This document shows, piece by piece, positions 2,943 through 26,328 of a stretch of 47,067 nt of DNA. This DNA is from an uncultured Methanospirillum sp. Its GTDB lineage: Archaea > Halobacteriota > Methanomicrobia > Methanomicrobiales > Methanospirillaceae. Each line of letters opens with the position of its first letter. The first letter of the stretch is position 1. Made by a program: the position numbers and the translations under genes. Under the pieces are notes generated by a model. That model worked only from the letters and a program-made list of their open reading frames with translations. It was not told where the DNA came from and ran no database searches. The stretch is from contig CAZWTX010000019.1 in NCBI GenBank assembly GCA_964637135.1, forward strand, positions 1-47,067, read 5' to 3'.

Positions 2943-3312
2943 GGGTGTTGAGGTGGAACCTGAGAGGTGATGAATTGATGAGATCGACCGGTCTGTGATG
3001 CCCGGTGAAGTGCATGATTGAGCGCAGAATTCCGGATACATGCCTCCTGTTGACAGGAGATTTCTCCCGCACCCTGCCGGGATTTACGATCGAGATGGTT
3101 TTGATGCTCTCCGGAACAGCTCCCTGAAGGATCTGATTCCCCCCGTTTGGGCCCGGCAGTGACAGCCTGCGAATGCATGATCCTACCGTGGAGACTAGTT
3201 TTTGCCATCTATCCTGTCGCCATCACCAGATATCCCCCTTTCTGACCCTCCTCACCATGGCACCGGTATCATTACCATGCGAGCCGCAGAGAGGAATACT
3301 ACTACCAGTACC

Positions 3313-3921
3313 ATGATCACAAGTGAGGAAACCCGGGACGGCATCCGTGAACTGGTGAATATCGGCGTCGGACGGGCTGTCGGGCTGATACAGGAACTAA
3401 CCGGTGTTCATGTCGTTAGGAGGATTCCGGATCTGGATGTTCTCACCCCTGGTGAACCGGATCAGACTCATCTTTCCCAAAGCAGGGATCTCTCCGTCGT
3501 CAGGATGAAATACTGCGGAGATCTGCAGGGAGTCTGCGCACTGACCCTCCCGCATGACAGTGCCCGCCGGCTGGTATACCTGCTTACCGGGGAGGAAGCC
3601 CGGAATGATGATGCAGGCATGATTCTGGAAGAAACGCTCTGTGAAGTGGGCAATATGCTGATAAACGCGGTGATGGGATCGATTGCCAACATCACCAGGA
3701 GATCCCTGACGTATGATCTCCCGGTGTATACGGAGAACTCACTGGCATCCCTGGTATCGTCCGGAGTAAAAGAGCCGGGGGGGGATCCGGGTATCCTGGC
3801 ACGGACCGGTTTCCGGGTTACATCGCCCCTTATAGAAGGTGATATCCTGCTCTTTCTTGACAGCCGCTCGATCCTTCTCCTGGATGAAAGCATTGCCTCC
3901 CTGATCGGGCCTGTCCGGTGA
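3313..3921 (+). CDS. cheC: Stand-alone CheC-family CheY-P phosphatase
   Basis: Two ExxN-x~22-P motifs: DGIRELVNIG...RIP and ETLCEVGNML...DLP; start uncertain (3277 or 3313). Confidence 0.8.
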   Translation: MITSEETRDGIRELVNIGVGRAVGLIQELTGVHVVRRIPDLDVLTPGEPDQTHLSQSRDLSVVRMKYCGDLQGVCALTLPHDSARRLVYLLTGEEARNDDAGMILEETLCEVGNMLINAVMGSIANITRRSLTYDLPVYTENSLASLVSSGVKEPGGDPGILARTGFRVTSPLIEGDILLFLDSRSILLLDESIASLIGPVR

Positions 3922-11461: not shown

Positions 11462-13468
11462 ATGGATACCGCAATTCGCCGGGAAGTTCGGGGTTTACTC
11501 ATTAAGGGGGAGGATGCACTTGGTCGCCATGACTATGAGCGTGCATCCGGGTATTTCAGGAAGGCATACAGCCTGGATCCGGATAATATCAAGGCGGTAG
11601 TGAACCTGGGGTTTTCATATGTGAAAATGGGACGATTATCCCATGCCCAGAAATGTTTCAGTTCTGCACTTGAACTTGATCCGGAAAATCCGGTTGCTAA
11701 AAAGAATTTAAATCTCCTGACACGGCCCCAGACCCGTGCCGGGTACCAACCCCGGTACAAACCCAGACCAGAAGAAGAACTCTATATCAGGTATATGCAA
11801 TGGGGGAACCTCCAGTTCGACGCTGGTAACTACTATGCAGCAGTCCAGTATTACCAGTCAGCAGCTGCTATACATCCTGATTTCATCGAACCATATATGA
11901 AGACCGGGCTCTGTTATGAAGAACTGAGTGAATTTTCCCGTGCCGTATCTGCATACGAAGAGGCTCTCAGTATCTATCCGAATGACCCGGTGGCAAGGGA
12001 ACACCTCGCCACCTGTATGGGACTGATCGAGGAAGAAGAGAGCAGACCCCGTCCGAAACCCCCTGAAAAGCGGGTGATTCCGAAACCTCCGGAACCAGCA
12101 CCCCCGGAGACGGCCCGTCCGTCAACTCCCCAGGCCCCCGCCAGGTCTGCCGTCCGGTCTGATGATGACATGATCGATGCCATTCTCAACCAGTACAGCA
12201 ACCTCCTCTCCGATGCAGCCGAAAAGAAAGCAGTCACTGAAAAACAGGATCCGATTGAAGAAGAAAAACCCCTGATTGCCGGCGAAGAGAAAGCCGGCAG
12301 CGGAGAACCTGCTCCTGAGGCTGCTGCCGCCCCTGCTCCGGTAAAACCCTCCGCATCTCCTGGTGGTATGGATGATGCGGTGAGCAGTATTCTGAGCCAG
12401 TTTGCAGATGAGGTCCCTGCTGGTGAGGAGAAAGCGGCCGGCGAAGAGAAAGCCGGCAGTGGTGAACCTGCTCCTGAGGCTGCTGCCGCCCCTGCTCCGG
12501 CAAAACCCCCCGCATCTTCTGGCGGTATGGATGATGCGGTGAGCAGTATTCTGAGCCAGTTTGCAGATGAGGTCCCTGCTGGTGAGGAGAAAGCGGCCGG
12601 CGAAGAGAAAGCCGGCAGCGGAGAACCTGCTCCTGAGGTTGCTACTGCCCCGGCGAAACCCTCGGGTTCCCCGGGCGGCATGGATGATGCAGTGAGCAAT
12701 ATTCTGAGCCAGTTTGCGGATGAGATCCCCACCGATGGCAGAAATAAAGAAGAAGGAACATCTCCCGCTGAACCGGAATTTCAGACCGGTGCAGCACCTC
12801 TCTCCAGCGGAGACAAATTGCCCAAGAAAAATGGAATCCGGGTAGATCTGAACGATAACCAGAAAGATGCCCTTCGCGAACTCGGTAATATCGGGGCATC
12901 CCATGCAGCCACCACGCTCTCCACGATGCTCAACACCCCGATCATGCTCAATGTTCCGGAAATTGCGATCGTGGATTTTCACGAGATCAACCGGCAAATC
13001 ACCCAGGAAAACTCAGCCATGGTCATCTTCACCATGGAAGGACAGATGAAGCAGGCAGGATATGTCATCCTTCATGTTCCCCAGGAATCGGTTGTTCAGA
13101 TGACAAGCATCATGCTTGGAATGCCGATTGAACCAAACCGGGCACTCAACGAGATGGATGAGAGTGCAATCAACGAGATCGGAAACATCATGGTATCGGC
13201 GTTCCTTGACGGCACGGCTGAGCTCCTCGGGATAATCATGCTCCCATCACCGCCGAGAACCATATTTGATCTCCCGAAAAACGTCTTTGACCTCGTGATC
13301 AACGAGAGCAATATTCTCTATGACAACGTGGTCTTCTTCAAAACAGAACTCATCTGTGATGAGCATGAACTGAACCTGAACATCTTTATGATTCCAAACC
13401 CGCCGGTTCTGACGAGCATTGTCAGGATGCTGGAGAAGATCATCGAAGACTCGGCTTCAACGGAATAA
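11462..13468 (+). CDS. TPR-repeat protein with tandem-repeat linker and C-terminal CheC phosphatase domain
   Basis: Two N-terminal blocks of TPR repeats; Pro/Ala/Glu-rich repeated linker; CheC domain with DALRELGNIG and SAINEIGNIM...PSPP; convergent with cheD. Confidence 0.88.
   Translation: MDTAIRREVRGLLIKGEDALGRHDYERASGYFRKAYSLDPDNIKAVVNLGFSYVKMGRLSHAQKCFSSALELDPENPVAKKNLNLLTRPQTRAGYQPRYKPRPEEELYIRYMQWGNLQFDAGNYYAAVQYYQSAAAIHPDFIEPYMKTGLCYEELSEFSRAVSAYEEALSIYPNDPVAREHLATCMGLIEEEESRPRPKPPEKRVIPKPPEPAPPETARPSTPQAPARSAVRSDDDMIDAILNQYSNLLSDAAEKKAVTEKQDPIEEEKPLIAGEEKAGSGEPAPEAAAAPAPVKPSASPGGMDDAVSSILSQFADEVPAGEEKAAGEEKAGSGEPAPEAAAAPAPAKPPASSGGMDDAVSSILSQFADEVPAGEEKAAGEEKAGSGEPAPEVATAPAKPSGSPGGMDDAVSNILSQFADEIPTDGRNKEEGTSPAEPEFQTGAAPLSSGDKLPKKNGIRVDLNDNQKDALRELGNIGASHAATTLSTMLNTPIMLNVPEIAIVDFHEINRQITQENSAMVIFTMEGQMKQAGYVILHVPQESVVQMTSIMLGMPIEPNRALNEMDESAINEIGNIMVSAFLDGTAELLGIIMLPSPPRTIFDLPKNVFDLVINESNILYDNVVFFKTELICDEHELNLNIFMIPNPPVLTSIVRMLEKIIEDSASTE
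12278..12730 (+). repeat. Intragenic tandem repeat, ~3 copies of a 159-bp (53-aa) unit
   Basis: Units start at 12281, 12440 and 12599 (GGCGAAGAGAAAGCCGGCAG...); units 1 and 2 are nearly identical, unit 3 lacks 6 bp and is truncated. Confidence 0.95.
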
Positions 13469-13470
13469 AA

Positions 13471-13971
13471 TCAGATCTCTTTTGATTTTCCGTCTGCCTG
13501 CCTGATGAGATACCTGCCATTCTCGCGGGGATAGTAGGTGACCGTCCGTCCCACAGTTCCCCCGATATCTTCACGGACGATCGGGATATTGCGTTCTTTG
13601 AGAAGTTCCCTGAGCCGTTCCACGTTCCGGTCCCCGATGTTGAGATTACCGGAAAAATTCTGGAACATCGAGGCACCACCGGCCAGTTTCGCCCGCAGGG
13701 TTCCCGTTCTGCACCCTTTCTGGCCCAGTTCACGGAGAAGGATTTCAACCGCCGTATCAGCATATTTTCCAACCCGCTCACCTGGTTTTCCGGTTGAATT
13801 CGGAAGCATTACATGTGCCAGCCCGCCTATCTTCCGTTCTTCATCATGGATTACCAGTCCGACGCATGATCCGAGCCCTATGGACATCATGACGTCACCT
13901 CCCACACAGTATTCACCGATCCCGATGACGATGACCTCCTGCTGGTCATGGACAATGGTAGATCCATTCAT
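13471..13971 (-). CDS. cheD: Chemoreceptor glutamine deamidase CheD
   Basis: [40 protein letters not shown] and [10 protein letters not shown] motifs. Confidence 0.95.
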
Positions 13972-13993: not shown

Positions 13994-14644
13994 TTACCCT
14001 GATGATGCAATGACATTTTCCATCCTGACAAAGAGTTCTTTCAGGAGGTTTTTTCCCGGGAGTAAAATGATGTTGGCAATGATTTCATATTCTGCGCATT
14101 TTAGTTCTGTCCTGAAAAGAACCACCTGGTCGAGATCATCTTCGATCTCCTGGGTGGCGATGATTGTTTCAAGGGCGGCATGCGGCATATCGATCACCAG
14201 GGATGGCGGGGAAGGTATCATGATGATGGAGAGGAGGGTTGCACAGGCATCCAGGAATGCAGATGTCATGATGTTCCCGATCTCATTGAGAGCACTCATG
14301 TCCATGTCGTCCATTACCCGGTTGACATCGGTGAGCCCGAGCATGATGTTGGTCAGCCGGATGGAACTGCTCTCAGGGATATGGAGGAGAAGGTATCCTT
14401 CACTCTTGATCTGCCCCTGGATCTTGAAGACCACCATTGCAGCCTTACTGTCATCCAGATAATCCTGCAGACTCGAGAGATTCACGAGGATAATCTCAGG
14501 TACCCGGATGGTGATGAAGGTATTGAGCATGGTGGACAGGGTTGTTGCGGCATGTGCAGCACCGATATTGCCGAGCTCCCGGAGTTCATCTGCCTGCTGG
14601 TCAGTAATCGTGAATCCCCCATCGGTAATAACGTTATTGCGCAT
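13994..14644 (-). CDS. cheC: CheC domain, possibly translated independently from an internal ATG (216 aa)
   Basis: GGAGGGTGA SD 8 nt upstream of in-frame ATG 14644; motifs DELRELGNIG and SALNEIGNIM...PSPP. Confidence 0.65.
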   Translation of the reverse strand: MRNNVITDGGFTITDQQADELRELGNIGAAHAATTLSTMLNTFITIRVPEIILVNLSSLQDYLDDSKAAMVVFKIQGQIKSEGYLLLHIPESSSIRLTNIMLGLTDVNRVMDDMDMSALNEIGNIMTSAFLDACATLLSIIMIPSPPSLVIDMPHAALETIIATQEIEDDLDQVVLFRTELKCAEYEIIANIILLPGKNLLKELFVRMENVIASSG

Positions 14645-17023
14645 TATCTTTTTCACCCTCCCGCTGGTGTTTTTTTTTTGGCCTTTCTGACCTGCTCCCT
14701 CGCGAAGGATCCCTTTTACATCAAGGACCGGAACGACTTCCCCGTCTCCCGGGATGGTGACCCCTGAAACCCCTTCACAGGTTCCGACAAACTTTGAAAG
14801 CGGTTTGATAACCACTTCCTGCTGTCCCTCGATGAGATCTGCGATGATAGCCCCCTTTTTCTGCTGGTTCTGGATGACAACGATCACCTCCTCGTTCTGT
14901 GATCGTCCGAACATGTCATCCAGGCGATAGAGAACGATGATCTCATCCCGCATCAGGATCCCTTCACCATGACCGATGTTCTGGATCGGAAATGCAGCCA
15001 GACTTGCCACTTCCCCAACATTCGTGATGGGAATGGCACAGCGGCGCCCATTGATCCGGATCATCATGACCATCACGATGGCCATGGTGGGCGGTAAAAC
15101 CAGTTCAAACCGTGTCCCCTCTCCGAGAACCGATTCAAGTTTGATCGTTCCCTGGAGACCAGCTATCGTAGTTTTCACGACATCAAGACCGACACCCCGG
15201 CCACTGATATCGGTGATCTTGTCAGCCGTCGAAAAACCGGGGAGAAAGAGAAGATCGTTGCATTCTGCATCAGACATCAGGGCAGCGGCCTCTTCGGTGA
15301 TGAGACCGCGCTCAAGAGCTTTTCTCCGGATCTTTTCGGAATCTATCCCGCCGCCATCGTCCTCGATGACGATTACGACATTATCCTTATCTCGCGATGC
15401 GGAGAGTTTCAGGGTTCCTTTGGCCGGCTTTCCGTTCCTGACCCTGACATCCGGGGATTCGATCCCGTGATCAAGGCCATTGCGGATCAGGTGGAGAAGG
15501 GGATCGTTCAGGCCATCCATGACACTCCGATCAAGCTCGGTCTCGCCACCTTCCACGATGAAATCAACTTCCTTTCCTTCTTTCGTGGCAATATCGCGCA
15601 CCGTTCGCGGGAACCGGTTAAAAATATGGTTCAGGGGGATCATCCTGATATCCATCATCATAACCTGGAGGTCTGACACCGACCTCCCGACCATGTTGAG
15701 TGTCTCGTCGAGTTCCTTGATCTTGTGCTGTTGGGCGATCTGTTCTAGTCTTCCCCGGTTTATCACGAGATCCTCAACAAGGTTCATCATGTGATCGAGC
15801 CGGTCGATATCAACCCTGATGTTCTTGACTTCCCGTTTCTTCTCCACCTTCTCCGGTGTAGAACCGGGAATATGTTCGGCGATACCGGCCGGGACGGGAA
15901 CATCAGGCTGGCTGACGGGACATTCTTTCCGGGTTTCAACGCTGACTGTGGCTGATTTGATATCAGATCCCTTCAGGAGCCCCTCAATAGTGGTTTTATC
16001 CGCGTCAGATCCGAGAACGAGTTCCATCATCCCGTCAAAGGCATCGCTATCCTCGATAATCTCCCGCCCAGGTGTTATCGAGACGATTGTCCCGGATCCC
16101 TCCAGGTTCTGGAGCAGGATCATTGACCGCAGGTTCTTCGAGTCAACCGAAGAAGAGATCTCTATGTGAATCACGTACCGGTACCGGAAATCGGGGAGTG
16201 TCTCTGTCTGCCCGGTTGCTGGTGGCTGGATCGCCTTCGATGGCTCTGGGAACTCGGGAACGATCTTCTTCTCACTGATATCAGAGACCGAAAGAACCGT
16301 TTCAAGCGCTTCCTGGCCTGCGTTGCTGGAGAGGACGAGATCGATTGTTCCGGTAAAGGAGGCATCATCCTCGACGGTCTCCCGTGCCGGGCTAATCTCG
16401 ATGATCGTCCCGAGGTTTTCGAGGTTCTGCAGGATCAGCATTGCCCTGAGATTCCTGTTGTCAACATCCGCTGCAAGGCCGATATGGATCTGGTAATCCT
16501 GGATCTCTGACTGATCGCCTGACTCGTACGGAGGAATCTCGTACATGTCCCCGGTGGTGTCCTCTATCGGGACCGGTTCACCTTTTTGTTCTGGCACGGC
16601 AGCTGCCGGCTGACCTTTTTCCACTGCCGGGCTTTTTGCCTCACCAGTCATCCAGTTCTTCAGGGCCTTGACCCGGGCATCCTTATGCTCAAGAATACCG
16701 TCTCCTCCACCCTCAATCTCATCGATCATCTGCTCGATGTCATCGGTTCCGGCAAGAAGATCGTTGACGAGTGATTTGCTTACCTCAAGAACCCCTGACC
16801 GGATCTGGGAGAAAACATCTTCAAGGGCATGACAGATCTCCTCCATGTGCATAAAACCCATGGATGCAGACATACCTTTGAGCGAGTGTGCTGATCGGAA
16901 TATCTCGTCTATCGCAGTAGAATCAGTCCCCTGTTCAAGGATAAGGAGATTGCTGACCACTGCTTCAAGGTTTTCTCGTGATTCAGCAACGTAGAGGCTT
17001 CGGTATGCATCGAGATCTGACAT
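13994..17023 (-). CDS. cheA: Chemotaxis histidine kinase CheA (Hpt, two P2, dimerisation, HATPase, CheW-like P5) in frame with a C-terminal CheC domain
   Basis: FRSAHSLKG (phospho-His), DPLLHLIRNGLDHG, EDDGGG, SGRGVGLDVV, P5 domain, then a CheC domain; GGTGA SD before ATG 17023. Confidence 0.93.
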   Translation of the reverse strand: MSDLDAYRSLYVAESRENLEAVVSNLLILEQGTDSTAIDEIFRSAHSLKGMSASMGFMHMEEICHALEDVFSQIRSGVLEVSKSLVNDLLAGTDDIEQMIDEIEGGGDGILEHKDARVKALKNWMTGEAKSPAVEKGQPAAAVPEQKGEPVPIEDTTGDMYEIPPYESGDQSEIQDYQIHIGLAADVDNRNLRAMLILQNLENLGTIIEISPARETVEDDASFTGTIDLVLSSNAGQEALETVLSVSDISEKKIVPEFPEPSKAIQPPATGQTETLPDFRYRYVIHIEISSSVDSKNLRSMILLQNLEGSGTIVSITPGREIIEDSDAFDGMMELVLGSDADKTTIEGLLKGSDIKSATVSVETRKECPVSQPDVPVPAGIAEHIPGSTPEKVEKKREVKNIRVDIDRLDHMMNLVEDLVINRGRLEQIAQQHKIKELDETLNMVGRSVSDLQVMMMDIRMIPLNHIFNRFPRTVRDIATKEGKEVDFIVEGGETELDRSVMDGLNDPLLHLIRNGLDHGIESPDVRVRNGKPAKGTLKLSASRDKDNVVIVIEDDGGGIDSEKIRRKALERGLITEEAAALMSDAECNDLLFLPGFSTADKITDISGRGVGLDVVKTTIAGLQGTIKLESVLGEGTRFELVLPPTMAIVMVMMIRINGRRCAIPITNVGEVASLAAFPIQNIGHGEGILMRDEIIVLYRLDDMFGRSQNEEVIVVIQNQQKKGAIIADLIEGQQEVVIKPLSKFVGTCEGVSGVTIPGDGEVVPVLDVKGILREGAGQKGQKKNTSGRVKKIMRNNVITDGGFTITDQQADELRELGNIGAAHAATTLSTMLNTFITIRVPEIILVNLSSLQDYLDDSKAAMVVFKIQGQIKSEGYLLLHIPESSSIRLTNIMLGLTDVNRVMDDMDMSALNEIGNIMTSAFLDACATLLSIIMIPSPPSLVIDMPHAALETIIATQEIEDDLDQVVLFRTELKCAEYEIIANIILLPGKNLLKELFVRMENVIASSG

Positions 17024-17028
17024 GTGAT

Positions 17029-18057
17029 TCACCCAGACATGGTTCGGATAAACTCTTCGATCTTGACGGGAATGCTTTTCAGCGGAACAACATGGTCTAC
17101 ACAGTTCCGGCTGAGGGCCGATCGGGCCATACCATACACAAGACAGTCCTCTTCCCTGCAGACCATCGTGATACCACCTGCACGCTTAATGAATTCAGTT
17201 CCCTCACCACCGTCGTTCCCCATCCCTGAAAGAATAACAGATACAATCCTCTGCCCGTACACCTGGCTTGCGGAAGAAAACGTCTTGTCAACTGCCGGTT
17301 TCACATTGTGCACCGGTGGCGAATCGGCAAGAACGATCTTTCCCCCCTGGACCCCGCCCTTGTCCATGAACGAGGAGACGATGGTATGAAAACCCGCCTT
17401 AGAAACCAGCACTGTTCCTTTCTTGAGGACATCCCCGTTCTCGGTCTCCTTAATCCGGAGTTGTGAGATCCGGTCCAGGCGGTTTGCCAGTGCAGCGGTA
17501 AACCCGCCTTTTGGCATGTGCTGGGTAATGATGACTGCGGCATTCAGGCTGGCGGGAAGGGTGGATACGACCACGTCAAGCATGGGCGGTCCGCCGGCAG
17601 ATGAACCGACGAGGACGATGTTTCGTGCAATCTCATCCTTGAATGTCGGTTTTGCAGTAACATAAGCGATGGTACAGATATTCTTGATCTTCTGTTTCAG
17701 TTCCCCGGAGATCTCCCTGATATTCTTGATACCCCGGGGTTTGAGCATGAAATCATCTGCACCAAGAGCAATTGCCCGCTTCGTCATCTCTGCTCCTTCA
17801 GATGTGAGGGAACTGAGCATCAGGGTTTTAGGGAAACGGGTAAAATCCTTGCGTTTTTCAAGGACACCAAGTCCGTCAAGACGGGGCATCTCGATGTCAA
17901 GGGTAATAAGATCGGGTTTCAGCTCATGGATCTTCTCGAGCGCTTCTACGCCGTCGTTGGCAATTCCGACGATCTCGATCTCGGGATCGTCGGCAAGCAT
18001 ATCCTGTACTACGGTTCTGATGAAGAGTGAATCATCGATGACAAGAACCCGTATCAT
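17029..18057 (-). CDS. cheB: Chemotaxis response regulator protein-glutamate methylesterase CheB
   Basis: REC domain (VIDDS, TLDIEMP) plus methylesterase motifs GSSAGGP, QHMP and SGMGNDG. Confidence 0.95.
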   Translation of the reverse strand: MIRVLVIDDSLFIRTVVQDMLADDPEIEIVGIANDGVEALEKIHELKPDLITLDIEMPRLDGLGVLEKRKDFTRFPKTLMLSSLTSEGAEMTKRAIALGADDFMLKPRGIKNIREISGELKQKIKNICTIAYVTAKPTFKDEIARNIVLVGSSAGGPPMLDVVVSTLPASLNAAVIITQHMPKGGFTAALANRLDRISQLRIKETENGDVLKKGTVLVSKAGFHTIVSSFMDKGGVQGGKIVLADSPPVHNVKPAVDKTFSSASQVYGQRIVSVILSGMGNDGGEGTEFIKRAGGITMVCREEDCLVYGMARSALSRNCVDHVVPLKSIPVKIEEFIRTMSG

Positions 18058-18060
18058 GTG

Positions 18061-18423
18061 TCAAGCACCAAGGACATTCGCAATTTCTTCGAGAACCTTG
18101 GGAGCCTGGAACGGCTTGACAATATAGCCCCGGGCACCACTTTTGATGGCGAGTTTTACCATCTGCTCCTGTCCGACTGCAGTACACATGATAACCCGGG
18201 CATTGCCATCGAGGGATTTTATCGCTTTTAAAGCTTCTATCCCGTTCATCTTTGGCATGACCACATCCATGGTTACCAGGTCCGGTTTTAAATCCCGGTA
18301 CTTATTCACTCCGATATCCCCATCCTCGGCCTCACCGACGATCTCGTGACCGCCGGCAGTCAGGATGTTCTTCAGCAATGTTCGCATAAAAAGAGTATCA
18401 TCGACAATTAGGATTCGTCCCAT
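18061..18423 (-). CDS. cheY: Chemotaxis response regulator CheY
   Basis: 120-aa single REC domain (IVDD, TMDVVMP, YIVKPF); GGAGG SD; adjacent to cheB. Confidence 0.93.
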   Translation of the reverse strand: MGRILIVDDTLFMRTLLKNILTAGGHEIVGEAEDGDIGVNKYRDLKPDLVTMDVVMPKMNGIEALKAIKSLDGNARVIMCTAVGQEQMVKLAIKSGARGYIVKPFQAPKVLEEIANVLGA

Positions 18424-18490: not shown

Positions 18491-19312
18491 TTATCCGGGT
18501 GGTTTGAGTGCGTCAGTAATGTACCTGACTCCTTTGGGAGTGAGCTGGACCTCTTTTCTGATCATGACCACATCGACCAGCTTGAGTTTCAGCAACGTGT
18601 CATAAATCGTGTCCAGTTCTTTAGGAGAGAGATTAAGCATATTTTCGATAGACTTGGTGTCCATGCCGCTGTAAATGAGCATGGCTACCTGGGCGGTCTG
18701 GGCATCGAGTTGATCGAGATCCGATGCCTTCATGTCCATGTCTTTTGTGGAATCACGCAGGAAATTGTATAATACCTGCAGTGTTGAAAGGGGGCAGAGG
18801 ATAAAGCTGGTTACGACCTCACCCCCCTCCAGGTGATCGATCTTCACCACATCAAGTTTCTTCTTCTGTAGTTCCCGTTTTGTCAGTTCAAGGCTGGCTA
18901 CTTCCCGGAGCGGGACGCAGATAAGTTTCTCCTGGCTGACAAACCAGATACCGGTCTTTAAGACAGCTATTGCCCCTTTCTCCCACTTGGCATTGGTAAC
19001 AAGAACGCCACCTCTGATGGCCGGAGACATGAAATGGGCCATCAACCGGTATGCGTTGCAGGACATGATGATCTTCTTGTTCAATGCCTGCACAACTTTT
19101 TCGACCGAGGCGATCTTGTATGCCTTCTCACTCTTGTCAGGTTGAGTGGAAAGGATCGTGATCATCTGGCCCCGCTGCTGGAGATCGACAATACTCCGGT
19201 ACAGGATATCCTCGTTGTATGGTTCTTTCAGACTGATACGGTCTTTTACGATATCCAGCTTGGAAGTAACCCAGGAGCCCCCTTTCTCTATTTTTACCGG
19301 TACCTCAGCCAT
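18491..19312 (-). CDS. cheF: Archaeal chemotaxis adaptor CheF
   Basis: FMSPAIRGGV...WEKGAI motif typical of CheF/DUF439; C-terminal winged-helix-like segment; lies between the arl and che genes. Confidence 0.82.
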   Translation of the reverse strand: MAEVPVKIEKGGSWVTSKLDIVKDRISLKEPYNEDILYRSIVDLQQRGQMITILSTQPDKSEKAYKIASVEKVVQALNKKIIMSCNAYRLMAHFMSPAIRGGVLVTNAKWEKGAIAVLKTGIWFVSQEKLICVPLREVASLELTKRELQKKKLDVVKIDHLEGGEVVTSFILCPLSTLQVLYNFLRDSTKDMDMKASDLDQLDAQTAQVAMLIYSGMDTKSIENMLNLSPKELDTIYDTLLKLKLVDVVMIRKEVQLTPKGVRYITDALKPPG

Positions 19313-19345: not shown

Positions 19346-20399
19346 TTATTTCTTCCTTGCTTTTTTGGAGATGATATCCATGATCTGCTTTAGTTCTTCA
19401 GCCAGTTCCTCAGCAGTTACGCGGATATCTTTACCGTTAACAACGAGTTTACCGTCTTTAACTCTTCTTCAGATCCTCGATATCGGCCTTGAGTGAGGCA
19501 ATGAGGTCATCGTCACCGAGACCTCCTCCCGGTCTGCCGGAAAGTTCGAACTGTTCCTCCCCTTCAGATTCACCCTCGCCTCCCCCGTAATCGTAGGGTG
19601 AGGACTCCGATGAACTATAGGATGCGAGATCAGAAGAACTGATACTGTCTCCTCCTTCCATGCTGGTAATGATATCATCACCCCCGTCTGAACCGATGTC
19701 AATGGTACTTGAGTAGATATCATCGAGATCGTCGGAGACGTCATCATTATCCAGAATGATCTCGTCCTCCTCGTCCTTGGTCGCGATATCCATCTTTTTT
19801 ACGGCATCTTCACTTGGAAGGTCATCAAGGGCGGCGGTCTCGCCATAGGGAGTCCTGATGTTGTCAAACTCAGGGTTTACCCCGTCGAGTTCTGCATCGA
19901 TGTCAAGACCTTCGTCAAGATCGAGCCCTTCAAGATCGATGTCAATATCATCATCCTTCGGTTCCTGCCGGGGCGGCGCATCTTCATCTTCTTCTGCAGA
20001 CGCGGATGAAGCTGCCGGTTCGGGTTTTTTCTTTTCAGTTTTCTGTGGTTTTTCCTTTTTTTCCTTCGGGGCTGATTTAGGAAGGGATAGTGATGGAAGG
20101 GCCGGCATCTTGAGAGAGAATCCCTTCAGCATACTCCCCTTTTCGGTACTCTTCGCCTTTTCCTTCTTTGGCTTTGGTTTTTTCTCTTTTTTCGGGCGGT
20201 TTTTGAACCTGATGAAAAGGTCATGGATCACTTCAGACAGGATCAGGGTTCCTGTGATGACGAGGAGTGCCAGTGCCAGGAAGATAACCGCCATCATCAG
20301 ATAGAGGACTGGAATATCGAAGATAAGTAAAATGGATCCCCCAAGCACGATGGTTACGAAGATAAGTAGTCGTCTGTTTGAATCTGTTAACTCCACCAT
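19346..20399 (-). CDS. Membrane-anchored Lys-rich/acidic protein of the archaellum cluster, apparently frameshifted near its 3' end (ORF stops at 19458; likely true stop 19346)
   Basis: Two N-terminal TM segments, Lys-rich then Asp/Glu-rich regions; a second frame continues ...KDIRVTAEELAEELKQIMDIISKKARKK* to 19346. Confidence 0.65.
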
Positions 20400-22022: not shown

Positions 22023-23618
22023 TCAGATATCGATCGCCAGCAGACCCTGTTTCTTCAATTTGGTGATCATGTTAAAGAGTTCGATGAAATCGGTATATCC
22101 TGCCTTATGAAGCCGTTCGAGGATTTTTGCCCGCTTTTCAACTTCCATGTAGATCATTGCCTTTTTATGTTCAGGAATACCGAGCATGGTGGCGATCTTT
22201 GTCTCGAGCATGTAACTTGCTCCTTTCCCGGTGAATTCATGAGTATCCGTGACCGGGTCCCAGGTAAAGACCTGGACGAATGAGAACCCCCCGCTTTCTG
22301 CATCGTACCCGACCAGTTCGCTCACCGATAACTGGCGACGGACATTGGATCCATCAGGCCGCCGCACTGCACTCTGGATGACCACCAGGTTCAGGTTATC
22401 GACGAACGTCTTCGGGATGAGGATCGGATCTCCGGTAAGACGCTGGATCAGTTTTTCCACCGATGCCGCGTGGAACGTACTCATACACGGGTGACCGGTC
22501 TGCATCGCACCAAAGGCAACTGATCCTTCCGTTCCACGGATTTCTCCGACCATGATCATGTTCGGCCGCTGACGGAGTGCAGCCCTGAGAAGGTCGAACA
22601 TGGTGACATCCCCGCCTTCTCCTTCGCCCTTCCCTTTCCCTTTTGAGACTTCACGTGACCAGTTCTTATGGGGAATGATGAGTTCAGGGGTGTCTTCGAT
22701 GCTGACGATTTTTGATTCGGGTGCAATAAACGCGGTCAGGGCATTCATACTGGTGGTCTTCCCGCTCGCCGTCTCCCCTGACATGAAGAGTGACATCCCG
22801 TTCTCGATGCAGATCCAGAGATACGCAGCAAGCTGGTAGCTGCAGGTCCCGAATTCGACCAGTTTGGTGATCGAGATAACATCATCCATCGCTTTACGGA
22901 TGGTGAAGTTACTCCCCTTCCTGCTGATCTCAGTCGAGTACACGATATTGATACGGGAACCGTCAGGAAGCGTCGCATCACAGATCGGGTTCCGGTAGGT
23001 GATCGGCCGGCGGGCNNNNNNNNNNNNNNNNNNNNNNNNNNNNNNNNNNNNNNNNNNNNNNNNNNNNNNNNNNNNNNNNNNNNNNNNNNNNNNNNNNNNN
23101 NNNNNNNNNNNNNNNGGATTGATTGCCTCACCCGGTTTCTTGATGTATAGAACCTGGCGAAGCAGACGCTTAAGAACGGTAGTCCGCTCTTCAGGAGTTT
23201 CCGGGTCCTCTTCAAGGGCATCAAGAAGATCTACGAGCCGGTACTCGACAGCCGGGATAAGTTTCCCGATATTATGCATGAATGACGGTTCAATCGGGAT
23301 ATAGAAGTTCCTGACATCATTCGGGTCAAAGAAGATATGAATGAAGATCGGGGGTTTCGCCGGGTATATAAGGTTTGGATCCTTGATTCCTTTCAGATCA
23401 CGCTTGAGTTCTGAAAAGAAAAGGGGGATGCCGTATTCATCTACCGGAAAAATGTGAAGATATTCAAGGAGGTGGGGATAGTTCTTGACGTATTCTTTTG
23501 CATTCGCCGGAAGCATCCTGAACAGTGCGCAGGATTCCGGGTTTATCAGGCACTCTTCAGTGTCGTGGCTCTCAGCCTCCTCAAAGGGGATTTTCCCCTG
23601 GATCTGCAGTCGTGCCAT
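22023..23618 (-). CDS. arlI: Archaellum motor ATPase ArlI (FlaI), interrupted by an assembly gap
   Basis: DATLPDGSRINI, Walker A GETASGKT, SIEDTPE, ALRQRP, Walker B VGEIRG, His-box TGH/TFHA. Confidence 0.93.
   Translation of the reverse strand: MARLQIQGKIPFEEAESHDTEECLINPESCALFRMLPANAKEYVKNYPHLLEYLHIFPVDEYGIPLFFSELKRDLKGIKDPNLIYPAKPPIFIHIFFDPNDVRNFYIPIEPSFMHNIGKLIPAVEYRLVDLLDALEEDPETPEERTTVLKRLLRQVLYIKKPGEAINXXXXXXXXXXXXXXXXXXXXXXXXXXXXXXXXXXARRPITYRNPICDATLPDGSRINIVYSTEISRKGSNFTIRKAMDDVISITKLVEFGTCSYQLAAYLWICIENGMSLFMSGETASGKTTSMNALTAFIAPESKIVSIEDTPELIIPHKNWSREVSKGKGKGEGEGGDVTMFDLLRAALRQRPNMIMVGEIRGTEGSVAFGAMQTGHPCMSTFHAASVEKLIQRLTGDPILIPKTFVDNLNLVVIQSAVRRPDGSNVRRQLSVSELVGYDAESGGFSFVQVFTWDPVTDTHEFTGKGASYMLETKIATMLGIPEHKKAMIYMEVEKRAKILERLHKAGYTDFIELFNMITKLKKQGLLAIDI
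23016..23115. other. Scaffold gap (100 N)
   Basis: Run of exactly 100 N, a conventional unknown-size gap. Confidence 0.98.
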
Positions 23619-25437: not shown

Positions 25438-26328
25438 TTATTCACGGGATGGAATATATTCAAACTCCGTGTCGTCTTCGGCAAAGTTGTCGGTCTCCTC
25501 CATTTGCCCTGCCGGAGCTCCCTGGCGACGCTTATCGATGAGTACATCGAGCATGTCACGATCCAGGGCCGGGTCCTCAGGCTGGAGAATCCTGTTCAGT
25601 TCGTACAATGCGAGGACAAATTCATCTGCCCGCATCTCGTGAACCTCTCCGATGGACGGAGCCATCAGGCGTGCAATATCCTTCACCTGTTTACAGTGGT
25701 CATCAGAGATATGCCCCATCTCTTTGTACGACTCAAGCATCAGGTCGACACGGTCATGACCGTATCTTCTGACATTGTTCGTCGTCCATTCAAAGAGACT
25801 GTAAACTTTCTGAATCTTCACCTTCTCACGCGGCTTTTTCGGTTTGCTTGTTTCACGCGGTGCCTGGTCGGTAAAAAGCTGGTTACGGAGAGCTTCCAGC
25901 ATTCCTTTTTCAGCGGTAAGTGAGGAGAGTGCCGAGGAGACACCTGACATTGCTCCCCCGCTCTGCAGACCTCCCCCGAGGTCTGGCTGGCCCCCCATTG
26001 ATGAATCCATCATATCTGGTTCTTCTGACATTGAATCCCCCTCTGACATTGCCTCAACTGTCGGTTCTTCGTCGTAATCATCGATGTATCCGTCCATCGG
26101 CGTCGGCGTGGAACCCGGTTGTCCGACGAACTCCACTGGGTTTCCTTTCAGAGCCTGGACTAACGGGTTTTCCGTGTCATTCATCCGTTCCCGGATATCG
26201 ATGAGCAGGCGTTTAATCGAGGTCTTGAGCAGCTCCACCTCATCCCGGAGTTTCAGAAGTTGAATCTCCGGATCTTCGGCAGATGCCGAAGAGATGATGC
26301 TGTCAACCTGCGCCTGGTTGACTGCCAT
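25438..26328 (-). CDS. Divergent ArlC/D/E-like switch protein (coiled coil, low-complexity linker, ArlD/E-like domain)
   Basis: N-terminal coiled coil ending in DTENP; C-terminal LFEW...YG..RVDLMLESYKEMGHIS resembles the ArlD/E W...G...L.YY..IGWIS pattern; first gene of the arl run. Confidence 0.62.
   Translation of the reverse strand: MAVNQAQVDSIISSASAEDPEIQLLKLRDEVELLKTSIKRLLIDIRERMNDTENPLVQALKGNPVEFVGQPGSTPTPMDGYIDDYDEEPTVEAMSEGDSMSEEPDMMDSSMGGQPDLGGGLQSGGAMSGVSSALSSLTAEKGMLEALRNQLFTDQAPRETSKPKKPREKVKIQKVYSLFEWTTNNVRRYGHDRVDLMLESYKEMGHISDDHCKQVKDIARLMAPSIGEVHEMRADEFVLALYELNRILQPEDPALDRDMLDVLIDKRRQGAPAGQMEETDNFAEDDTEFEYIPSRE

Follow-up and report, generated by a model that had tools for sequence, protein, structure and literature searches.

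Which protein ends the signal carried by phosphorylated CheY (CheY-P) in archaea, which have neither FliY nor CheZ, is the question raised by a gene located at positions 11462 to 13468 (plus strand) of a 47,067-nucleotide stretch of DNA from an uncultured Methanospirillum sp. (contig CAZWTX010000019.1), the whole of which is referred to here as the window. The gene encodes a 668-residue protein in which tetratricopeptide repeats (TPRs) are connected by a long linker to a CheC domain, and an earlier note on this DNA had described it as a TPR-CheC protein with four CheY-docking helices and as a candidate archaeal analogue of FliY. An archaeal CheC in the role of FliY has already been proposed, for Halobacterium salinarum CheC2 (PMC2666748), and no catalytic function had been confirmed for Halobacterium CheC (PMC7289035). 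According to our analysis, the fusion is a CheC-family protein predicted to act as a CheY-P phosphatase, probably independently of CheD, whose linker helices may catch CheY-P, a reading that we propose tentatively and to which we give clearly less than an even chance.

The CheC phosphatase domain (12848 to 13459, plus strand) harbors both catalytic motifs, which we take to be defined as [DS]-x3-E-x2-N-x22-P, and all eight motif residues (D469/E473/N476/P499 and S568/E572/N575/P598) are invariant in 48 of 48 aligned sequences. CheC was matched twice by Pfam (PF04509, above the cut-off), and Foldseek retrieved Thermotoga CheC as the nearest fold (template modeling score [TM] 0.87), followed by FliY (0.77), the 2F9Z/1XKR matches having an E value of 1e-14 and TM of 0.85 to 0.88. 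The helix after the second catalytic segment, presumably the CheD site of the 2F9Z structure, reads DMISAIF in Thermotoga CheC and, in the majority of the 26 other archaeal CheCs compared, contains D-M-x-x-[AS], whereas in the fusion it is degenerate and reads DLPKNVF (13268 to 13300, plus strand). On a matrix of this docking helix, the fusion proteins have a median of 0.0 bits (58 of 60 proteins) versus 18.8 bits for the 26 other archaeal CheCs scored by leave-one-out, 6 further CheC loci that did not fit the anchor being omitted. The CheC paralogue fused to the C-terminal end of CheA (cheA, 13994 to 17032, minus strand, with two P2 domains) retains the CheD-docking helix and scores 19.0 bits. 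Seven divergent homologues are also missing the docking-helix Asp, and Thermotoga FliY likewise has no D-M-x-x-A helix at the corresponding place. An Asp sits at the CheD interface, and mutation of that residue class weakens CheD binding in Bacillus (PMC3513319). CheD boosts CheC five-fold, CheC still having 6% of the activity of FliY (PMC3513319), and since CheC is of such low activity and is raised by CheD, a CheC that operates without CheD would need another boost. The CheC domain, previously described as intact, is so in its two catalytic motifs and not in its CheD-docking helix. It is this degenerate helix, absent from the earlier note, that is the best support in the sequence for reading the protein as a FliY analogue, and we infer from these residues both the phosphatase activity and the CheD independence of the fusion.

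The open reading frame starts at an ATG at 11462, a position backed by the alignment of homologues, and stops at 13468. Its TPR region (residues 1 to 194; 11462 to 12043, plus strand) consists of two helical-repeat blocks, with Pfam TPR matches at residues 14 to 184 and a predicted local distance difference test (pLDDT) value above 85, and is separated from the CheC domain by a Pro/Glu/Ala-rich linker of 270 residues, whose net charge of −21 contrasts with +7 in the first TPR block. The AlphaFold2 model shows a folded TPR part (1 to 194), a folded CheC part (465 to 666), and a disordered linker interrupted by four isolated helices at residues 234 to 257, 304 to 313, 359 to 368, and 409 to 419, with no confident interdomain contact (predicted TM [pTM] 0.40; helix pLDDT 55 to 73), although this single-chain model drew on only 48 related sequences. 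Helix 1, of type A (DDDMIDAILNQY; 12161 to 12196, plus strand), was placed by motif position and by AlphaFold2. Helices 2, 3, and 4, of type B (12368 to 12403, 12527 to 12562, and 12680 to 12715, plus strand), are units of one 159-bp (53-residue) tandem repeat of 2.9 copies with 89% matches (12278 to 12729, plus strand), and the 48-nucleotide cores of the first two copies are identical in DNA. The architecture and the four motif positions previously reported (12161, 12368, 12527, and 12680) were all confirmed. A third conserved linker motif, overlooked in the earlier note and reading FQTGAAPL in this protein (12779 to 12802, plus strand), lies at a near-fixed distance ahead of CheC.

The number of helices and their conservation were evaluated in 60 fusion proteins, namely, the query and 59 matches to the full-length fusion at 90% clustering (P0002 to P0060), some of them partial. 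Most carry two helices (n = 49), and the others carry one (n = 3), three (n = 3), four (n = 4), or five (n = 1); the expansions are separate in the present lineage, in M. lacunae, and in one divergent group, and ancestrally the genus had one type A helix with one type B helix after it. Because helices 2 to 4 stem from one recent tandem repeat, the number four is a strain-level trait: the four helices previously counted are present, but three of them are repeat copies, and 49 of the 60 proteins have two. The region is covered piecewise by contigs from four public runs, none of them spanning the whole repeat, so that the exact copy number of the strain is without independent confirmation; the depth of the repeat unit is raised in two of the four runs and not in the other two, and the public RNA runs contain only 6 to 9% of the words. 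The consensus of 109 distinct helix instances (including two false matches, removed afterwards) is D-D-[IPMVL]-[VI]-x-S-I-L-x-Q-[YF]-x-D. The motif occurs in 60 of 60 fusion proteins, a count that is partly circular since the matrix was built from the same set, and among the 8,248 six-frame open reading frames of the genome only these four sites match it. Mean pairwise identity among 42 of 43 two-helix orthologues (one was left out for want of an anchor) is 71% in the TPRs, 70% and 79% in the two helices, 87% in CheC, and 20 to 24% in the four spacers. The earlier note had named the retention of the helices amid diverging spacers as a check of its own, and this is what the orthologues display; given this difference in identity, we regard the linker helices as selected features. 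The third motif, [IV]-P-x-T-G-x-A-P-L, has 75% identity and is found in 51 of the 60 proteins. The two spacers from the last helix to CheC span 16 to 23 and 10 to 14 residues, while the first spans 31 to 102. A look-up of residues 225 to 330 in the ESM Atlas gave no usable match. Two homologues are irregular: P0053 has a duplicated CheC start and carries two linker helices, and in P0050 the TPR-linker part is joined to the CheA-type CheC half, as an assembly chimera or a real inversion. The two cheC domains flank cheD face to face and share a near-identical start, and through an inversion the two proteins would exchange their CheD-docking helices.

The helices had been likened by eye to the CheY-P-binding peptides of FliM, FliY, and CheZ, and their general design agrees with that likeness, with hydrophobic residues at i, i+3, i+4, and i+7 behind an acidic cap, which is the spacing of the CheZ and FliM peptides. 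Helix 1 contains IDAIL, and five helices from four divergent homologues score 24 to 31 against the CheZ peptide; the S-Q cap together with an Asp ahead of the Leu pair occurs in one divergent subgroup only. When scored with BLOSUM62 against one bacterial peptide of each kind (the Escherichia coli FliM and CheZ 11-mers), helices 1 to 4 reach 20, 6, 7, and 5 for FliM and 20, 17, 18, and 15 for CheZ, and a score of 20 is attained by 225 (FliM) and 371 (CheZ) of 1,613,399 background windows of the genome.

Several results weigh against the reading of the helices as CheY-P tethers. The family medians, 5 for FliM and 12 for CheZ, are near background; the Gln of the S-Q cap is present in 5 of 109 instances, the family does not conserve the FliM Gln and Asp, and its own conserved Gln-[Tyr/Phe] has no counterpart in either bacterial peptide. 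Helix 1 (DMIDAIL) fits the CheD-docking helix of CheC better than the FliM peptide, with 18.0 bits on the matrix of 26 CheC docking helices, a value reached by 4 of 1,649,351 genome windows. On a matrix of the FliM-like N-terminal peptide of the ArlD/E-like protein of the same window, described below, the linker helices have a median of −3.6 bits versus about 28 for the members of that matrix, which also gives 17.1 to the fusion's own catalytic helix; if it is the ArlD/E peptide that occupies the groove here, the linker helices probably have another partner. As for the presumed substrate, CheY (18061 to 18423, minus strand), its alpha4-beta5-alpha5 face is nearly invariant in Methanomicrobiales but is equally conserved in genera without the fusion, and it has Glu and Asn where E. 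coli CheY has K119 and K122, which we take to be peptide contacts. The profile search over 1.84 billion protein representatives returned five family members and one unrelated repeat protein, with no FliM, FliY, or CheZ among them; the latter match (P0198), with only 9 matching positions, was rejected. The linker and four 30-mers, when scanned against NCBIfam, likewise matched no FliM, FliY, or CheZ model. The assignment of the helices to the FliM/FliY/CheZ type is thus not upheld for the family. The groove of the local CheY does keep its hydrophobic residues and is surrounded by the basic K90, K94, R98, and K109, and since the place where CheF binds CheY is close to the phosphorylation site and outside the FliM groove (PMC9126983), this groove would be free for a tether. 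A three-chain prediction of helix 1 with CheY and CheD scored 0.01 (mark 0.32), with its controls unfolded and its design outside the calibration of the tool, and counts neither for nor against any partner. Short capped acidic helices mimic one another, and for this reason none of these likenesses names the helix partner.

In the reading that we favor, the linker helices would catch CheY-P and hold it beside the CheC active sites, as in FliY and CheZ, the candidate docking face being the alpha4-beta5-alpha5 groove of CheY, occupied by neither CheF nor the CheC active site. Extra helix copies would raise the local concentration of CheY-P, and the TPRs would fix the enzyme at the motor or pole, a placement that, alongside CheY-P as the helix partner, is the weakest part of the proposal. 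Such an arrangement would allow a division of labor in which CheD feedback at the receptor array stays with the CheA-CheC fusion and TPR-CheC ends the signal, a split akin to that of Bacillus, with a CheD-coupled CheC on the kinase and a CheD-independent phosphatase elsewhere. Alternatively, helices and TPRs could be address tags that recognize a protein of the motor or pole, among which CheF, the ArlD/E-like protein, ArlH, and the acidic membrane-anchored protein encoded at 19458 to 20399 are candidates, and would bring a CheD-independent phosphatase to the archaellum, which would then resemble FliY in location and function rather than in peptide. We deem this possible, if doubtful: the helix motif is family-specific, unlike FliM and CheZ; Halobacterium CheC2 interacts with CheF and has been proposed as a motor-localized FliY equivalent (PMC2666748, PMC7289035); and other methanogen CheCs are fused to localization domains (CheA here and CheW in nine loci of another family). 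However, no partner confined to the same two genera was identified, and the constrained distance from the last helix to CheC suits a substrate tether better than an anchor.

The match of helix 1 to the docking matrix, and its alignment with DMISAIF of Thermotoga CheC, leads to another interpretation, which we consider unlikely, in which the helices derive from the CheD-docking helix as relocated copies, or mimic it, and serve as a multivalent tether or sponge for CheD, their conserved Gln perhaps being deamidated by it. This Gln is near-invariant (101 of 109) and lies eight residues past the Asp, a position at which Glu is found in Thermotoga CheC and Gln in some CheCs of Methanomicrobiales; CheD deamidates a Gln introduced into CheC by engineering (PMC3513319), the fusion's own docking helix is degenerate, and the cheD gene is adjacent. 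Nevertheless, the family median on the docking matrix is 3.8 bits, far from the 18.8 of true members, with 5.3, 5.3, and 0.9 bits for helices 2 to 4; Pro replaces the Met that follows the Asp in 26 of 109 instances, Asp or Asn replaces the small residue four positions past the Asp in 18 of 109, and two intact CheC partners for CheD are already present in the genome. We find it just as improbable that the acidic helices bind the basic TPR groove of the protein itself, by which the enzyme would be autoinhibited in cis or assembled in trans into a polar cluster or a multivalent network of phosphatases. Short helices are common ligands of TPR grooves, every full-length member has both TPRs and helices, the charges of the first TPR block and of the linker are opposite, and the copy number, from one to five, varies as in multivalent assemblies; the model has no confident helix-TPR packing, a point weakened by its 48 related sequences. 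Finally, three of the four helices arose from a recent tandem repeat and their number varies, as would be expected if they were neutral by-products of an expanding repeat within a linker of low complexity, an explanation that is largely refuted by the 70 to 79% identity of the helices against 20 to 24% in the spacers and by at least one copy in 60 of 60 proteins, and that we regard as very improbable. To some other helix partner we leave a small chance.

A better candidate for an archaeal FliM-like peptide than the linker helices, judging from its residues, is a helix at the N-terminus of the ArlD/E-like protein encoded at 25438 to 26328 (minus strand), for which Pfam gave a weak PF04659 match (E value of 0.005) and whose homologues are named FlaD/FlaE in some sources. 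The N-terminus reads MAVNQAQVDSIISS, and residues 3 to 13, VNQAQVDSIIS (26290 to 26322, minus strand), score 28 against the FliM peptide, as do or exceed 8 of 1,613,399 windows, and 27 against the CheZ peptide; structure prediction renders the segment as a separate helix ahead of a coiled coil. The pattern cap-Q-x-x-[IV]-D-x followed by a hydrophobic pair is found in 114 of 120 ArlD/E homologues, the others being three fragments and three proteins with Glu for Asp. Among 151 genomes across the phylum, 49 have an ArlD/E of this type, 41 of them together with CheA and CheY and 8 with neither, and the strict FliM-like pattern is present in 30 of the 41 versus none of the 8, the coiled coil being kept in all; the median FliM score is 19 in the former and 6 in the latter. 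The 11 che-positive misses comprise seven recognizable variants, two eroded helices, and two proteins without the segment. With fixed-offset, leave-one-out scoring, which involved no motif search and covered 46 of the 49 genomes, 27 of 29 distinct che-positive peptides lie at 15 to 34 bits and the 7 che-negative peptides that could be cut out at −34 to 5.

The che-negative losses occur in four families, with four of the eight genomes 96 to 100% complete and four 70 to 86% complete; since kin are not independent, they amount to about three independent losses and not eight. One of the less complete genomes (G057) has a CheC match and probably is without che genes through assembly gaps, and the che-positive sister genus in its family is also eroded in the ArlD/E helix. 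Six genomes (G092, G025, G048, G097, G134, and G142) contain an ArlD/E-type gene and no detected CheA, CheY, CheC, or CheF, and their archaella are possibly non-chemotactic. CheF accompanies CheY in the genomes checked, so the partner of the helix may be CheY or CheF; a genus thought to have the peptide and no CheF did not separate them, as the three genomes lacking CheF by Pfam proved to have it in a protein search. We give close to an even chance to the helix being a direct CheY-P binder. Archaea are described as having no FliM homologue and a single CheY-P site at the motor, on CheF (PMC9126983, PMC7289035, PMC6718144, PMC12488501), and the contact between CheF and ArlCDE was left unmapped (PMC9126983). 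The helix, lost along with the chemotaxis genes, may be a second, FliM-like CheY-P site or a docking site for CheF, either of which would fill a stated gap, and it matters more widely than the linker helices. In one family (L227, L231, L235, L236, and L238) the ArlD/E helix (MDQSAIN...) resembles the second catalytic helix of CheC (MDESAINE..., P0001, region of residues 570 to 575), which contacts CheY near the phosphorylation site, a likeness that may be due to chance.

When we inspected other genomes, the fusion was identified in 23 of 24 others of the genus, with cheD lying at a contig end in the 24th, and in none of 16 genomes of other families, whose CheCs are plain; of 200 further genomes of the order, 2 had the TPR part, and these belong to one sister genus. 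The TPR-linker-CheC fusion was seen only in Methanospirillum and this sister genus, and the homologues carry Methanospirillum names in the source records. In a tree of 57 archaeal sequences only, midpoint-rooted and with no clade test, its long-branched CheC clusters (support of 1.0) with the CheC fused to CheA and with the second stand-alone CheC of the genome, and is most simply explained as a local duplicate of a Methanomicrobiales cheC with a changed job. A bacterial origin of the domain was set aside, since it nests among Methanomicrobiales CheCs in this archaeal-only, midpoint-rooted tree.

The surrounding minus-strand cluster comprises arlD/E-like, arlG-like, arlF, arlH, arlI, arlJ, a gene for an acidic membrane protein, cheF, cheY, cheB, cheA, and cheD, and the fusion gene faces cheD convergently, being transcribed against the che operon. 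CheD (13471 to 13971, minus strand) keeps its catalytic Cys/His and its Met-Phe pair, which is used in CheC binding (PMC3513319). In the CheA-CheC protein, a fusion found throughout the genus whereas other Methanomicrobiales have a separate cheC, the CheC part has intact catalytic motifs. CheF, the archaeal adaptor from CheY to the motor, is encoded at 18491 to 19312 (minus strand). Between arlJ and cheF, positions 19458 to 20399 (minus strand) encode a membrane-anchored, highly acidic, mostly low-complexity protein with no family match, which is conserved across Methanomicrobiales and has a small, likewise conserved helical part at its C-terminus; its frame in the assembly stops about 40 codons early, the remainder running on in another frame, and it is a candidate scaffold of the motor or pole. 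A run of N (assembly gap) at about 23020 to 23120 (minus strand) breaks the arlI reading frame. Other CheC/CheX-like genes in the genome are a CheX-like gene at 3202 to 3921 (plus strand) of the window and, elsewhere, a paralogue of the CheA-type CheC that stands alone and a more distant gene of this kind (G000:C8:29733-30320 and G000:C9:69220-69816); no FliM was found in the genome. In nine loci of another family in the phylum (L151, L154, L156, L158, L160, L162, L163, L165, and L168), a CheW-like domain, assigned by eye, precedes CheC, in some cases with a long Pro/Ala-rich linker.

Databases already annotate the fusion as CheC plus TPR. We found no description of an archaeal chemotaxis CheC-tetratricopeptide fusion in the searched literature, which covers few subscription papers and no supplements, and with the same coverage, a search on the fusion of CheC to CheA in Methanospirillum yielded general papers only, and searches on EIDALL, ArlD/ArlCDE, FliM, and CheY-P turned up nothing beyond reviews and the CheF and ArlCDE papers already known. 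The fusion is a new, narrow-range variant of the CheC family for which a FliY-like role is plausible: the invariant catalytic motifs and the loss of the CheD-docking helix fit such a role, although the protein is not a FliY and a FliM-type character of its helices is not supported. A broader idea, which we place on the unlikely side, is that FliM-style CheY-P tethers operate in the archaella of Methanomicrobiales, Archaeoglobi-like, and related lineages, with an ArlD/E peptide acting with CheF in a two-step capture and, in Methanospirillum, a multivalent, CheD-independent, TPR-anchored CheC as a convergent FliY. Methanospirillum is a cultured genus with a clean natural split between a CheC on CheA with a CheD site and a CheC on TPRs without one, so that three small proteins and four peptides would suffice for a direct test of the FliY-analogue idea.

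Among known systems, the fusion matches CheC best (Thermotoga CheC, PDB 1XKR; CheC-CheD complex, 2F9Z; NF041093; E value of 1e-20), with which it shares the catalytic motifs and an adjacent cheD, while differing in its degenerate CheD-docking helix, 460 extra N-terminal residues, and orientation against the che operon. With FliY, the flagellar switch phosphatase of Bacillus and Thermotoga (NF005995, PDB 4HYN), it has in common the CheC fold, the two catalytic motifs, the absence of a canonical CheD-docking helix, and, ahead of the domain, a flexible segment that bears a short helical motif. It differs from FliY in that it has no FliN/SpoA domain (no Pfam or NCBIfam match) and ends with CheC, its TPRs are N-terminal, and its helices are internal, multiple, and without an EIDALL motif; on NF005995 it scores 58.5 bits against a cut-off of 218, through the CheC domain only, and, unlike FliY, it descends from a Methanomicrobiales cheC. 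The C-terminal helix of CheZ is similar in design, a phosphatase with a tethered acidic amphipathic helix of the same hydrophobic spacing and with 7 of 9 identities to the helices of one divergent fusion subgroup, but the catalytic fold of CheZ is unrelated, and the helices of the fusion are not terminal and have a family median score near background. Halobacterium salinarum CheC2, likened here by description, is an archaeal CheC paralogue proposed for the role of FliY from its CheF interaction, and the available excerpt mentions no TPR or helix-bearing linker (PMC2666748). The ArlD/E host protein is unrelated to FliM, and its 30-mer matched no NCBIfam model; yet both peptides form the extreme N-terminus of a switch-complex protein as a separate helix before a coiled coil, they align in register (hydrophobic residue, cap, Gln, [IV]-Asp, and two hydrophobics), and the best site of E. 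coli FliM on the ArlD/E matrix is its own N-peptide, with 10.4 bits, reached by 33 of 1,616,359 windows.

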